Virus record (IMG/VR): IMGVR_UViG_3300042888_000268
Reading direction: 5' to 3' (one strand)
Source of the DNA: an uncultured virus (IMG/VR IMGVR_UViG_3300042888_000268)
Taxonomy: Duplodnaviria; Heunggongvirae; Uroviricota; Caudoviricetes
DNA length: 64,000 bases
Part shown: positions 32,011-41,596 of the stretch, piece after piece
How the letters are laid out: each line of letters starts with the position of its first letter
Position numbering within the stretch: position 1 is the stretch's first letter
Notes under the pieces: model-generated
Seen by the model: only the letters and a program-made list of their open reading frames with translations
The model's database searches: none
Told to the model about the DNA's origin: nothing
Position numbers and translations under genes: made by a program

Positions 32011-32267
32011 AAAAAGTTTAAACTACACAAATTTAATATTATCTTATACATAATGTGCTGATAAGATATCCACCTAGTTTCCCCCTATGTGAATATCCCC
32101 TCTATGGGTGGACATAAATTTTTTTACCCCCTAAAAAATACTCCGTGTTATGCGGTGGTGGTACCTCACCATCAGCACTCCCCCATCGGTCACACGAGCG
32201 GGTGGTACCCCTAGCTTCCTGTGGAAGAGCAGGGGAAAACCCCTGACGTACATTAAAAATAATAGTT

Positions 32268-32465
32268 ATGGAAAAGATTAATGAATGTACGTGTACATCA
32301 CCCTATTGGTGTCATGACGAGAATCAGATGGAACCTGGATATACATGTGACTACTGTGAACAACAACAGTCTAGTCAGAGTGTGGTATCATTTGTTGCTA
32401 GTGTTAATAACCCTAGTATAGTGAGTGATGAGGATAATGAAGCTTATGATGATCTCCCTTTCTAG
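32268..32465 (+). CDS. Small Cys-containing acidic protein with SSB-like DDLPF tail
   Basis: 65 aa. CTC..CH..CDYC and C-terminal EDNEAYDDLPF. Confidence 0.75.
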   Translation: MEKINECTCTSPYWCHDENQMEPGYTCDYCEQQQSSQSVVSFVASVNNPSIVSDEDNEAYDDLPF

Positions 32466-32516
32466 GGGGATTATCATGTAGTATTCTACCCCTGATGCTG
32501 GTAAAAATAATATAAT

Positions 32517-32669
32517 ATGAAAGACCCAAATGTAGTTACACCAGCATTAAGTGATGAAGAAGTAATGGAAATGTTTCAGAAGGAGTATGAGAATCCAGGA
32601 TATGTAGATGATGATGAAGAACTAACTGAAGCAGACTATTGGGATGGTGATGCATCCTATTGTGAGTAA
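32517..32669 (+). CDS. Very acidic 50-aa protein
   Basis: Read manually: MKDPNVVTPALSDEEVMEMFQKEYENPGYVDDDEELTEADYWDGDASYCE. ATG 21 nt after ACCCCTGA; hairpin after the stop. Confidence 0.75.
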   Translation: MKDPNVVTPALSDEEVMEMFQKEYENPGYVDDDEELTEADYWDGDASYCE

Positions 32670-32740
32670 GTAAAGACACCCTTAATTGGGTGTTTTTTAT
32701 GTAGAATATAAACCCCTGATTGTATTAAAAATAATATATT

Positions 32741-32950
32741 ATGAAAAAGATTAGAATTAAAGTGTTTGTGTTAACTATGTTAGCACCGTTCCTAGCTGTA
32801 TGGATTGCTTGGATTATGACAGCCTTCAGCTTTGAAGTACGTGATGTATTTCAAGAAGGAGCCTTTTGGGGTATTAGTATGATCTACTACTTCATATGGT
32901 TGTGTCTTATTGGAATGGTTATAGATGAATTAAAGGAGCCTGCTAAATAG
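32741..32950 (+). CDS. Small two-TM membrane protein
   Basis: 69 aa with two hydrophobic segments; cassette context. Confidence 0.75.
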   Translation: MKKIRIKVFVLTMLAPFLAVWIAWIMTAFSFEVRDVFQEGAFWGISMIYYFIWLCLIGMVIDELKEPAK

Positions 32951-33003
32951 CAGGTTCTTTTTACAAAGAGACCAACCCCTGATTGTATTTAAAATTAAAT
33001 AAT

Positions 33004-33243
33004 ATGATAAATCTAAACTTGAACAAGAAACCATTTGGTATCAGATTTGAAGGTAATACAGTATGTATTAAGCTACGCTTTACAAAGGAAAGATTCCTTA
33101 AAGCAGAGATAGCAGAGTACGGCTCACACTTTACTACCAAGTCTGGCCATATCATCTTTGAAGCAGAGTATGTAGCACCAAGTAGAAACTTGGCTGAACT
33201 ACAGAACAAGCTTGATGTATTACGTAATCAGCCTACTAAATAG
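33004..33243 (+). CDS. Hypothetical early protein
   Basis: Likely start MINLNLNKK at 33004, 21 nt after ACCCCTGA. Confidence 0.7.
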   Translation: MINLNLNKKPFGIRFEGNTVCIKLRFTKERFLKAEIAEYGSHFTTKSGHIIFEAEYVAPSRNLAELQNKLDVLRNQPTK

Positions 33244-33303
33244 TAGGTTGGTTATTTTTTTCTGGTGTATTAAACCCCTGATTACATAATAAAATAATTC
33301 ATT

Positions 33304-33612
33304 ATGAGTAACATTACACAGCCTTATGGCTACAAAGTATTTAGTATTGGTAACATTACCGTTTACAGTGCTAAAATCCGAGTTAAAGCACACTACACTG
33401 ACTTTGACTTTATGTTTGTTAGTATGGCTAACAACCACCCTGTAATTATTAGCAACCATAAGAACAACTGCGTTGCTATTAGTTGGGCCACTACTGATTA
33501 CATAGTACATAATATGTACAGAGAGCTACTTAACAACAAGTTAGCCTCTATTATGCACGCACGCATAGATGCCAAGTATAGTAACCACCACGAGGTGACT
33601 ATGTGTATCTAA
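33304..33612 (+). CDS. Hypothetical early protein
   Basis: 102 aa, cassette context. Confidence 0.7.
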   Translation: MSNITQPYGYKVFSIGNITVYSAKIRVKAHYTDFDFMFVSMANNHPVIISNHKNNCVAISWATTDYIVHNMYRELLNNKLASIMHARIDAKYSNHHEVTMCI

Positions 33613-33695
33613 CCTATTATAGCAGATTGCCTAACAAGCAGTCTGCTATTATTATGTAGAATTTTACCCCTGATGGGTATATAAAAATATATAAT

Positions 33696-33941
33696 ATGAG
33701 TAAATTAAAATGGGTATTAAAATTAAAAAGGACCGAGACATTAACCAACGGTACTAAATTAGAAACATTAGAGTCCTATGACTTTGACACTTTAGAAGAT
33801 GCAAGTGATGCAGAGTTTAGAATAGATAAAGTAGGTATTTGGGATGTAGAAAGTGCAGTTGGTGTTAATGCAATAGGTTATAGTAGTTTAGGATTACAAT
33901 GTATTGAACTATTTAATTTAGGAGAAGAAGAGAAGGGTTAA
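33696..33941 (+). CDS. Hypothetical early protein
   Basis: 81 aa, cassette context. Confidence 0.7.
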   Translation: MSKLKWVLKLKRTETLTNGTKLETLESYDFDTLEDASDAEFRIDKVGIWDVESAVGVNAIGYSSLGLQCIELFNLGEEEKG

Positions 33942-33979
33942 CACCCTTCTTCTTCATTTAGAATATAACCCCTGATTCT

Positions 33980-34217
33980 ATATTAGATGTAATCTTCCTA
34001 GGTAGCTACGGGTTTAAGGTAACAGAAAAAAATCAACCTACTGAACCCTCATTATTAAAAACTGCAGAGTTGTGGGTACTGTAACAGTGATAGATTTTTA
34101 GATTGCATCTTTTATACAAACCAAATGGTTGGTTCCTTATAGCTTTGGACCGTAATACCACAACAGTCGTAGCTGACACACAGAAACAGGAGTTTATTAT
34201 TTCTCCTGTTTCTTTTT
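33980..34217 (+). ncRNA. Candidate structured ncRNA in a cassette slot
   Basis: No plus-strand ORF. Several long-range pairings; bounded by ACCCCTGA and an 11-bp terminator stem. Confidence 0.6.
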
Positions 34218-34260
34218 ATATTTAAACAACCCCTGATTATATATTAAAACAAATAAAACC

Positions 34261-34761
34261 ATGGAAAAGATCATCCTAAAAGCCCTCTCTTTGGCCGGCT
34301 TTAAAAATGCCGAAGAAATCACACGTGTTATTAGCTCAACTCCTAATCCAAGGATTGCAGCTGAAATGATACTAGGTGTGTTTGAACCCACTGTACTTGA
34401 CCCTGAAACAAGGTATAGAAAGCACAAGTATGATAGCCACAAAGAGTTTGTGGAAATACTTGAGATTGACGACCTAGCTAACACAGTAAAGTATAATGTG
34501 TTTAACCAAAACAGCAAGTGGGTGTACTATCTTACCCAAGAAGACAAAGAAGCAGGTATATATCATGATACCAAGAAGTCTAGTCTAAATTACTATGACT
34601 CTGGTAGTGTATCTACCGCTGGGTATACAGTAAATGAAAGGACTGATACCGTTGAATCCTTCTATCAAAGCTACACTAATGATATTTGTGTAGATAAGAT
34701 ACTAGAGATCACCGCTGCATGGGATGTACATAGTATACCTAAAGAGGCAGTTGCACTGTAA
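34261..34761 (+). CDS. Hypothetical early protein
   Basis: 166 aa, cassette context, hairpin plus T-run after the stop. Confidence 0.8.
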   Translation: MEKIILKALSLAGFKNAEEITRVISSTPNPRIAAEMILGVFEPTVLDPETRYRKHKYDSHKEFVEILEIDDLANTVKYNVFNQNSKWVYYLTQEDKEAGIYHDTKKSSLNYYDSGSVSTAGYTVNERTDTVESFYQSYTNDICVDKILEITAAWDVHSIPKEAVAL

Positions 34762-34829
34762 ATGTAAAGAGCTATCCTAGATTTGTCTAGGGTAGTTTTT
34801 CTATTTACACCCTCTATTGTAACCCCTGA

Positions 34830-35010
34830 TTTAACGATGCTAAATTTATATTAACATTGTTTGTTTAGTAGGCTCAACAATGGGGAAGAAAAACATAACC
34901 GTTTATGTAGTTTAACGACTCCATTTTCAGTGATGTTCCCCATTGTTTTACAGCTTAATAGATTAATGTATAGAAAGTTAAATCATTTCTGGCAGCCTTC
35001 GGCTGTCCCA
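34830..35010 (+). ncRNA. Candidate ncRNA in a cassette slot
   Basis: No ORF. Perfect 12-bp stem AACAATGGGGAA/TTCCCCATTGTT; ends in a cUUCGg hairpin. Confidence 0.5.
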
Positions 35011-35090
35011 CATTATCTATTTTTTCCACCCTCTATTTAACCCCTGATACAATATAGTAATAATTATTCACAAATTAAACAATTTAAAAA

Positions 35091-35420
35091 ATGTTACAAG
35101 CTAAATTAGACGGTTCTTACCGTAAAGCAACTACCGGTGTAAAAGTATTCAGATTTACCGTTAGCGGTACTGAACAAGACCTTAAAGCGTATGAAGACGC
35201 CCAAGGGGACAGTTATCGTTTAGATGAAAAGACCGGTAAGCCTTTGTGGTTCACCACTCGTTATATCGGTGATAGCGTAAAGCTTATTATCACTGATAAC
35301 AACAATGTTGTTGCTGATGATACTGAATTGGCTAAACTACAAAGTTTAGTAGACCAATTTGGTCCTGATGTTGCAAAGCTCGTTCTTATGCAGAAATCTG
35401 CACCAACAAGTGCTGAATAA
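35091..35420 (+). CDS. Hypothetical early protein (probably highly expressed)
   Basis: 109 aa, biased codons, terminator at about 35430-35469. Confidence 0.8.
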   Translation: MLQAKLDGSYRKATTGVKVFRFTVSGTEQDLKAYEDAQGDSYRLDEKTGKPLWFTTRYIGDSVKLIITDNNNVVADDTELAKLQSLVDQFGPDVAKLVLMQKSAPTSAE

Positions 35421-36130
35421 GCCTTGTTATATATCCTACACTCTTAACCGGTGTAGGATATATTTTTTTAAGTTAGTTTGTCCCCCAGTCCGTCATCTAA
35501 TTAACGACTCTTATTATTTTCTTACGGCTCTGCACGCCTTCAGCGTGTCTCATCCACACTTAACTCCCTGATTTTCATAGAGTTATGTGTGTAAATCAGT
35601 GAGATAGGAACACAGGTGGGATATCTATCATATCCACAAGTCTCTCTAAATCAGCCACTTTGAAGCGGATAATATGGCTATAACTATCAGATATATGACA
35701 CTAAAGTAAAAACACTACACATCTACAGGGACTATCCTTGATTACCCCCTGGTGTAGACCTTTAAGCAGTAAATCAAGCTATGTTGCTTATTGGACTTTT
35801 AGTTATTAAAGATACGATCTGTCTAATCCACAGATAGTATGCCCAATACGATGAGAAATGGTTTGATAACCATATGGGTAAGTGTTGTTACTTAGTAACA
35901 GCAGGTTGATCACCTGATGATGAACTTCTGAACAATCTATTTCTAACCTAGCAATAGGGACAGCCACGACACCTGTAAGTTGGATAAATTAGGGTGTTAC
36001 ATTTTTCAGACAGCTCACCAGTGAGCTACAATCATAGTATAGTTAATTATTAGTACTATGACTAGGGGTCATACATGAGCTCCCCCTTTTTCCACCAAGT
36101 TTATTTATTCATCACATACAATTCATTAAC

Positions 36131-36280
36131 ATGAAAAGAACAAAGCACTTAGTATTCCGTACCTATCAATCCTTTCAGGAATGGTACATGAGAATGGCTA
36201 AAAGATTTACCACCCTTAGGTTGGAGTTTCTAAAGATATTTAGATCTTCTACCTATATAGCTGTATCTATCAGCTATTAA
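36131..36280 (+). CDS. Small basic hypothetical protein (49 aa)
   Basis: Read manually: MKRTKHLVFRTYQSFQEWY...; A-rich leader. Confidence 0.45.
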   Translation: MKRTKHLVFRTYQSFQEWYMRMAKRFTTLRLEFLKIFRSSTYIAVSISY

Positions 36281-36616
36281 AAAGATTTAGTTTCCCCCAA
36301 ACTAAATGATGACTACGAGCCATTCCCACGCCACTAAGACTTATAGAACTCTTGTGTGAGACCTTTATAAGACAGAGCTGATCTGTAATGGAGTGTTGGG
36401 TACAGCAGGGCTCTAGTCATTTATTAAAGTGCACAATAGATATAACAGTATGGGAATCCCTCCCTACTAACACATCTAGCGGACTGTTATACTATGTGCA
36501 TAATCCCATCTATTCCATAAAAACATTATGTGGATGGTGACCCGGAGACTGAAATACGTCAATGGGTGCCATTTATTAAAACCCTTTCATTTTATCACCA
36601 ATCAATTCATTTAAAC

Positions 36617-41164: not shown

Positions 41165-41578
41165 GGGGCCGTATTGGTTTTGACAGATATGAGGAAGGTA
41201 GTATCACATGTAAGCCTTGGAACAGGTAAACAAGTTCTAAACAATAACCGTAAAGAGTCAATCTGAGCGTGTTGCAGAAGGTGAAGCTATCTTAGCTTCT
41301 ATCTTTGCTTCTGAGTATGCATTAGCAGCTTAGGCAACTGGGTGGTAACAACCTGGAAACAGAAAGTTACAAGCGTTTTCTCTGTTATGTCAAAACAGAG
41401 TGGTGGATGGTAAGCAGGACCTGCGTACCCCAATCTACTGATCAGGAGTGTCCAGGACTCTGTAGAAATACAATGTAATTGCTCTGGAAAAATGTACATG
41501 AACAGCTCTAGATCTAAGCATGTAAGAATGGTATTATTGTCACGTATTTGGACAGGGGTTCAACTCCCCTCGGCTCCA
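41165..41578 (+). ncRNA. ssrA: tmRNA
   Basis: 5' GGGGCCG..TTTGACAG; 3' T arm AGGGGTTCAACTCCCCT plus CGGCTCC-A with G3-U70. Tag frame 41250-41333 ends YALAA-stop. Confidence 0.93.
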
Positions 41579-41596
41579 CACATTAAAAACAACATT

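Follow-up and report, generated by a model that had tools for sequence, protein, structure and literature searches.

The early region of a freshwater phage

The DNA analysed here, a stretch of 64,000 nucleotides that we call the window, is part of one phage genome and carries terminase, portal and capsid genes on its minus strand. Lake and freshwater sequencing runs hold DNA that is nearly identical to it. A blastn search against 50,697 named phages gave no match, and its terminase is about 25% identical to those of named crAss-like and Flavobacterium phages. The complete genome G003 encodes a terminase that is 79–80% identical to that of the window. Pfam searches of G003 found Crass_capsid and CrAss_Ring_1/2, and a 2257-aa protein in the same genome carries DFDID, a virion polymerase motif of the DFDxD type. 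Because G003 has these capsid and ring domains and the DFDID protein, the clade of the window is crAss-like. On sequence grounds the window phage is a freshwater crAss-like phage, G003 showing the features that define Crassvirales. The host is probably a member of the Bacteroidota, judging from the virus order and by analogy with phi14:2, a phage of the same order that infects Cellulophaga. The window encodes a tmRNA at 41165–41581, and G003 also carries one. Where the late and early genes diverge, a palindromic G+C-rich stretch (32080–32240) is a possible genome end or origin; similar stretches lie beside the core described below in several homologues.

On the plus strand, short cassettes form a row from 32239 to 35047, with the word ACCCCTGA at the head of each. 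All 10 copies of this word in the window lie within the row, against 1.16 expected, and we infer that it is an early promoter. A relative (L121) has ACCCTTGA in its place. One cassette of the row, at 33666–33967, holds an 81-aa ORF that is absent in L214/L218, where the neighbouring proteins are otherwise more than 90% identical to those of the window; this cassette has been gained or lost between promoter repeats. Another, at 34822–35047, contains a long irregular hairpin and, as its sole frame, a doubtful 59-codon TTG frame; L121 and L124 have its GCAGCC-TTCG-GCTG hairpin too, in the corresponding slots. Farther downstream, about 1.1 kb with few ORFs (35420–36530), to which several RNA-run contigs map, may hold a larger non-coding RNA, and positions 35797–36280 of it are 90% identical in L124.

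The cassette under study begins with the copy of ACCCCTGA at 33968–33975 on the plus strand, the strand of all its features. An 11-bp helix, helix A, has its 5′ arm at 33985–33995, the probable 5′ end of the RNA, and its 3′ arm at 34100–34110. The arms enclose an exchangeable insert, which we call cargo A (33996–34099), with a likely internal helix at 34043–48/34074–79. A G-free, single-stranded linker of 16 nt (34111–34126) leads to a conserved core (34127–34177), and a terminator-like 11-bp hairpin with a T run follows at 34182–34217. The unit ends at the promoter-like word of the next cassette (34229–34236), which contains a 166-aa ORF (34261–34761). The original prediction had credited the slot with a promoter-like word and a terminator of its own, and both are found. 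The terminator scan did not list the hairpin, since its 10-nt loop exceeds the limit of 8 set in the scan. The whole slot, terminator included, folds with a z-score of −3.09.

The conserved core and its fold

The conserved part of the slot is the 51-nt core at 34127–34177, which the original prediction had not singled out. A search with 18 exact letters taken from the 3′ half matched six viral contigs, and only positions from about 34122 to 34180 are shared between them and the window. Four further patterns, each of which fixed a different part of the core and left the rest free, recovered the same core in 11 of 31, 15 of 26, 19 of 22 and 24 of 26 loci. Rows that did not represent the core (20/31, 11/26, 3/22 and 2/26) were dropped before counting, and those rescanned with a covariance model scored 25 bits at best, versus 66–85 bits for the cores. 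The core is thus present in 33 contexts, the window included, with 23 distinct sequences; L217 and L239 are true cores that were left out of the 23-sequence count. A covariance model built from 24 core sequences placed 34 of 43 sources at 66–85 bits, the next best reaching 18. Exact patterns miss distant members and inflate the apparent invariance; each half of the core was free in one of the searches.

All five near-complete genomes carry a single copy of the core; it lies on the strand opposite to the terminase gene, 3–14 kb away from it. The terminases of core-bearing genomes are related at 31–82%. The core was absent from the partial records (33–42% complete) of three close relatives, G001, G007 and G008. 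A scan of 185,579 prokaryote species genomes with the core pattern gave one match, on a contig of 2.7 kb that has the cassette laid out in the same way and is most likely a binned phage fragment. Searches with neighbouring proteins yielded one and four loci, and the three of these that were tested with the covariance model lack the core.

Comparison of the homologues shows a core in which a stem leads through an asymmetric internal loop into a hairpin; a second hairpin follows, and the two hairpin loops kiss through 3 bp. The first domain (34127–34159) comprises the 3-bp stem P1 (34127–29/34157–59), a 1×5 internal loop (34130/34152–56), the 5-bp stem P2 (34131–36/34147–51) and a 10-nt loop (34137–46) that holds the kissing triplet 34142–44. 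P1 is identical in 23/23 sequences, being partly fixed by the search patterns. In P2, where the 51-nt type has one bulged T that was skipped in the pair count, four pairs are intact in 23/23 with up to five pair types, and the outer pair is G-C in 19 and T-T in four of the 23. The second domain (34160–34177) consists of a linker (34160–65) and the hairpin P3 (34166–69/34174–77), the three outer pairs of which are intact in 22 of the 23 sequences. Its loop is TAGC, the AGC of which (34171–73) pairs with 34142–44. A kissing pair is G-C in 18 sequences and A-U in the other five, with no mixed case. These five have five different P2 stems and identical loops; since all five share both loops, the A-U variants may stem from one event.

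The pairing was evaluated in a MAFFT alignment of 22 distinct rows. In it 91.3% of cells were paired, in comparison with 78.1 ± 1.2% in shuffles and 26–39% in slid controls, and 8 of the 12 core pairs showed double changes. G-U wobbles in the core fall on the plus strand.

The original prediction had named three helices, A (33985–95/34100–10), B (34004–10/34168–74) and C (34069–75/34158–64), and the crossing of A with B and C had been taken to imply a pseudoknot or a conformational switch. All six segments lie at these positions and pair as described, and helix A does cross the other two. In 500 dinucleotide shuffles of 33980–34180, an 11-bp helix like A appeared in 3%, and two or more long-range 7-bp Watson-Crick helices in 35%; helix A is therefore above chance, and B and C are at chance level. 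Three double changes preserve helix A in L230, which has the same insert as the window and a helix of 13 bp, and the helix is also kept around the different insert of L214/L218. On this comparative evidence helix A is real. When the 3′ arms of B and C were joined into one search pattern, at least 120 viral matches were obtained, and none of the 80 loci examined resembles the cassette; a pattern that combined promoter and helix A gave two matches, both unrelated.

A functional pseudoknot or switch made of B and C crossing A is very unlikely. Both helices do exist in the window, six of the seven pairs of C are kept in L230, and the fold with B and C (−53.2 kcal/mol) lies 4 kcal/mol above the minimum (−57.2), the fold with A, P2 and P3 being at −56.1, all for the single sequence of the window RNA. 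Yet perfect 7-bp partners within 200 nt upstream were found in 4 of 32 contexts for B and in 2 of 32 for C, the window included, and in the shuffles such helices are at chance level. No compensatory change was seen, and the two helices would break P1, P3 and the kiss, and so clash with the covarying P3 and kissing pair. In L230, a change at 34074 breaks C and is compensated at 34048 within the local helix 34043–48/34074–79, a comparison of two sequences only. Single-sequence folding of the window RNA, in which pseudoknots have no term, gives ensemble probabilities of 0.52 for B versus 0.47 for A, and for this reason an alternative B/C fold, one without comparative support, is possible in the RNA of the window phage alone. 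That a phage early region carries a cassette for a structured, pseudoknotted non-coding RNA is supported, but the knot is a kissing loop.

The slot had also been described as free of ORFs. Strictly, two frames cross it: a 40-codon TTG frame on the plus strand (34103–34225) and a 48-codon GTG frame on the minus strand (34033–34179). In 23/23 sequences one plus and one minus frame run through the core with no stop codon, as would be expected of a conserved micro-protein gene in place of an RNA. We give this alternative next to no credence. In the plus frame, 7 codon variants are synonymous and 23 are non-synonymous, and 6 of 32 contexts provide an in-frame ATG upstream; by these measures the frame is not a gene; moreover, the cores differ in length by 1 nt, 12 of the 23 being 50 nt and 11 being 51 nt long. 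The plus frame of the cassette behaves as non-coding, and a literal absence of frames does not hold.

Exchangeable flanks and neighbouring genes

The insert upstream of the core varies among homologues. Cargo A has a sole known homologue, in L230, with 79% identity over 125 nt. L214/L218 and an RNA-run contig (X21 record 17) hold other inserts in the same slot, and the inserts as a whole form several unrelated groups, each conserved within itself. One group, represented by L130:2341–2436 and by L233, L196, L219, L228 and L226, has a motif of two hairpins, a CCTAC loop and invariant blocks, and a downstream ACAGAA-GG block may pair with the CCTAC loop. At L124:5577–5793 the slot is filled by another structured insert that lacks ORFs; it shares the terminator of the window, has no core and gave no Rfam match. 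At the other extreme, the insert is reduced to a short loop in L204, L191 and L239, and the minimal form, in L204, consists of a promoter-like word, a hairpin, the linker, the core and a pseudoknot.

The linker is poor in G: the last 12 nt before the core hold 10 G in 372 letters (2.7%), compared with 18% in the upstream background. In 25 of 32 contexts the best upstream stem stops 12–25 nt short of the core, a count made without a shuffle control. On the 3′ side of the core, a rule-based classification of 31 contexts gave an H-type pseudoknot in 16, a hairpin in 9, both in one and neither in 7, and the pseudoknot rule was satisfied by 8 of 930 shuffles. This H-type pseudoknot is a second conserved module, with stems of 3 bp and 5–6 bp, a loop ending in AAAC and then a T run. 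It lies 1–45 nt past the core (L129, L150, L165, L204, L221 and others), and many homologues have it instead of the terminator-like hairpin; the window copy is without it. In L174, a hatchet ribozyme (83.8 bits; 2555–2689, in a crAss-like early region) begins where the 3′ pseudoknot ends, 29 nt from the core, and would define the 3′ end of the RNA.

With such exchangeable inserts, the core might be a mere 3′ stabilizer or handle, and the inserts the active RNAs. The several conserved insert groups, one of them with invariant blocks, agree with this, as does the L124 locus, where another non-coding insert is joined to the same terminator with no core. We nevertheless consider it quite improbable, as near-insertless forms exist (the three named above) and the 3′ end is already capped by a terminator or a pseudoknot.

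The genes that follow the core do not point to a regulatory target in cis. The 34 ORFs that come first after the core belong to 24 groups, and therefore there is no fixed cis target; a cis-acting riboswitch or leader was rejected on this count and on that of the new promoter-like word after the window terminator. The 166-aa neighbour was rejected as a partner because it is missing from all five core-bearing genomes; it had no PHROG, Atlas or PDB match. Pfam domains of RT, Cas, TROVE and RtcB proteins were not found among 86 ORFs of G003 (at least 110 aa, ATG starts), which makes it more likely that a partner would belong to the host. The contents of the slot turn over among close relatives, and counter-defence loci often turn over rapidly.

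Contigs from four RNA runs were also inspected, and among those listed two overlap the core. One, X21 record 17, covers 34123–34190 with one difference, and its 96 upstream letters differ from those of the window. The other, X19 record 2, covers 34148–34298 and reads through the terminator. None of the listed pieces covers 33985–34122. These contigs show a further insert type rather than transcription.

Relation to known RNAs and possible functions

When the window was compared with Rfam 15, as the original prediction had proposed, tmRNA was the only match at the gathering cut-off, and the slot obtained no family. In the homologues, no Rfam model fell on the core in 20 loci at the gathering threshold or in 14 loci at E ≤ 1, and the core alone scored 11.1 bits at best, under the gathering cut-off. 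The motif was not found described in the literature searched, and four tables of PMC10690425 hold no match; an anonymous listing among the candidates of Fremin 2023 (PMC10690425) or Weinberg 2017 (PMC5737381) is possible. The core is a real and apparently uncatalogued phage RNA motif, with a pseudoknot unlike the one first proposed. The only Rfam model that shares its layout is cow-rumen-1 (RF02946), positions 5–39 of 61 of which resemble the core in having a 3-bp stem, a 1×5 loop with UAA, a 5-bp stem and a UUA...GCU apex. The match is at chance level, however, with 9.4 bits versus a cut-off of 53.4 (E 9.1) and the 3′ part unaligned. It was not reproduced in any of seven other homologues, nor at the core in five genomes.

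With a probability that we put at about 0.9, the product of the cassette is a discrete early RNA of about 230 nt (approximately 33985–34217) that acts in trans. Counted for a discrete RNA, and likewise for the decoy role proposed below, are the covariation, the single copy in 5/5 near-complete genomes, the minimal L204 form and the L174 hatchet. Counted against are the absence of the core from the three partial relatives and the read-through of the terminator in one of the two RNA-run pieces that touch the core. A host-factor binding site is the simplest reading of such an RNA, because the slot is early, single-copy, dispensable and fast-turning, the loop bases are invariant and a single strand adjoins them at a fixed place. 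No host RNA was found that the core could copy, the one match in 185,579 genomes being on a phage-like contig.

Among known RNAs, the direct repeats of type VI-B/Bt/F CRISPR systems show a partial likeness to the core. The span 34128–34164 is 36–37 nt long, starts with the same three letters and, in most cores, contains TTTG, GTAA and an ACAAC end, by eye and against the portion seen of Dataset EV2 of PMC13187072. GTT-to-AAC spans measure 36 nt in 12 and 37 nt in 6 of 18 distinct cores, in line with the length of about 36 nt that characterizes VI-B repeats. The end letters vary, however, in 5 of 23 cores, and the 4-bp end stem of VI-B repeats is complete in 14 of 23 and broken without compensation in 9. 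In the accessible part of PMC7613696, the repeat of Cas13bt3 has this 4-bp end stem, a 5×5 loop and a 5-nt hairpin loop, whereas the core has the 3-bp P1, a 1×5 loop and a 10-nt hairpin loop. The second VI-B stem lies at about 10–16/22–27, but the covarying stem of the core occupies positions 4–8/19–23, the TTTG-GTAAT block is displaced by 2 nt, and the core is single-copy and the VI-B repeats are arrayed. Judged by its sequence, the core is not a type VI-B repeat, and since the end stem fails in 9/23 cores the likeness serves as a lead only.

Two phage records of 187 and 363 kb hold CRISPR-like arrays of 36-nt repeats (L146:1501–1866 and L163:1–900); the L146 array has 30-nt spacers and adjoins a 415-aa ORF that is TnpB-like by eye. 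The core span has 21–30 identities to these two repeats, a biased figure because the arrays were found with a pattern shaped on the VI-B likeness. A Cas13b search in the two records gave no match, and it gave none in control genomes either.

The setting of the cassette resembles that of RNA anti-CRISPRs. The Racr solitary repeats, rAcrVIA1 and rAcrIIA1 are, like the RNA considered here, small phage RNAs with their own promoter in an intergenic slot, and they have a part-likeness to a CRISPR repeat family, as the core does (10.64898/2026.06.03.729762, the portion available). That portion describes RNA anti-CRISPRs acting on types I, II-A, V-A and VI-A, and reports that rAcrVIA1 mimics the crRNA fold with negligible sequence likeness (10.64898/2026.06.03.729762). 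The 5′ single strand of the core sits where the VI-B spacer lies, according to the available parts of 10.64898/2026.06.03.729762 and PMC13187072. Plaque counts under Cas13b defence rose about 1000-fold when a lone VI-B leader-repeat RNA was overexpressed, as stated in the accessible text of PMC13187072. Unlike RNA anti-CRISPRs, the core has an unconserved end stem (14/23) and a 10-nt loop that kisses a second hairpin, and no adjacent acr gene was identified beside it. Mimicry of a Cas9 sgRNA was set aside, because the kiss and the invariant bases would fall in the would-be tetraloop and misfit it.

Antitoxin RNAs of type III systems (ToxI, CptI, TenpI and AbiF RNA) are a second point of comparison. 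They are small pseudoknotted RNAs located between a promoter and a terminator, as here, with A-rich single strands and a topology similar to that of the 3′ H-type pseudoknot of the homologues, as far as the available sections of PMC12283969 and PMC12737573 describe them. The core differs from them in its single copy in 5/5 genomes with no tandem array, in the lack of a fixed toxin gene downstream (24 groups among 34) and in its loop-loop kiss in place of an H-type knot. Phage pseudo-ToxI RNAs are known to act as decoys.

We put forward, tentatively and at somewhat less than even odds, that the core RNA is a counter-defence decoy of a host defence protein. The phage would make the cassette RNA at a high level right after entry, and the structures at its ends (the 5′ helix and the 3′ terminator hairpin or pseudoknot) would protect it. 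A putative binding site, formed by the single strand next to the core together with invariant bases of its loops and junction, would titrate a host RNA-binding defence nuclease of the Cas13b clade, the AbiF type or the type III toxin type, in the manner of pseudo-ToxI and the RNA anti-CRISPRs. The turnover of the slot, the VI-B likeness and the approximately 1000-fold plaque effect were counted in favour of the decoy; counted against it were the incomplete VI-B end stem and the different register of P2. Furthermore, a conserved housekeeping partner or intrinsic chemistry would explain, no less well than a variable defence protein, why the core is near-invariant between phages with terminases as far apart as 31%. 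A more elaborate version is unlikely: the RNA may be a modular multi-decoy, its core a refolded, non-activatable mimic of a Cas13b-clade repeat (or of an AbiF-type antitoxin ancestor), with a G-poor strand in the place of the spacer, capped by a helix, and with further pseudoknot modules exchanged on both sides so as to neutralize other RNA-binding defence proteins. In that case it would inhibit type VI-B/F immunity as an RNA, and no such inhibitor was found described in the accessible parts of the sources cited above.

The near-invariance of the core across divergent phages and its early position also suit a host-takeover RNA, in which the core and the G-poor linker would bind RNA polymerase, ribosomal proteins, Rho, an RNase or the virion polymerase and favour phage expression. 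The DFDID protein of G003 would offer a partner of the last kind. Phage phi14:2, of the same order, makes two abundant and persistent early non-coding RNAs, according to the available part of 10.1101/2020.03.07.982082. Their regions span several hundred bases, unlike the core cassette, and the first 12 kb of phi14:2, where they lie, do not contain the core (best model score 8.5 bits). Its second early intergenic region (L250:4030–4500) looks tmRNA-like by eye and is not so annotated. Takeover is on the whole rather unlikely, as the core is missing from the first 12 kb of phi14:2 and from the three partial close-relative records. The Bacteroidota −7 promoter word is present in the loop of just those 10 of 23 cores that have TA, and an ATG lies over the start of the core in only about half of the contexts (T at −1 in 17 of 31). 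A packaging role like that of phi29 pRNA was set aside because the syntenic region of close relatives lacks the core.

Alternatively, the core could be a small ribozyme of a new kind that cleaves itself; its internal-loop hairpin, held by the 3-bp kissing loop, resembles the arrangement of stem-loops I and V in the VS ribozyme. It shares its size, pseudoknot and phage intergenic setting with hatchet, twister, pistol, theta and VS ribozymes; it is about 50 nt long, with many invariant unpaired bases, variable flanks and no fixed neighbour gene, and in L174 it has a hatchet 29 nt away. Even so, no Rfam ribozyme model fell on the core at E ≤ 10, and catalytic consensus motifs were not seen. The promoter and the protective ends of the minimal form suggest that the intact RNA is the product, and X21 record 17 runs unbroken from its insert through the core into the terminator, a weak argument. 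We regard a ribozyme as a doubtful candidate.

An aptamer sponge for a small molecule, for example a nucleotide immune signal, is improbable. The compact pseudoknotted fold with invariant junction bases is a trait of riboswitch aptamers, and such a sponge would need no translation; there is no expression platform and no fixed downstream gene. No riboswitch model of Rfam matched the core, however, and the fixed-length G-poor linker would go unexplained; we know of no natural RNA sponge of the aptamer kind for small molecules.

The core is a small RNA fold missing from Rfam and conserved across an aquatic clade of crAss-like phages, and nature offers a minimal version of the RNA of about 130 nt. 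It provides a concrete motif for asking what the early non-coding RNAs of crAss-like phages do. If it is a ribozyme or an aptamer, it would represent a new class of either. If it is a decoy, it would add an RNA inhibitor for Bacteroidota defence, and possibly an off-switch for Cas13b tools.
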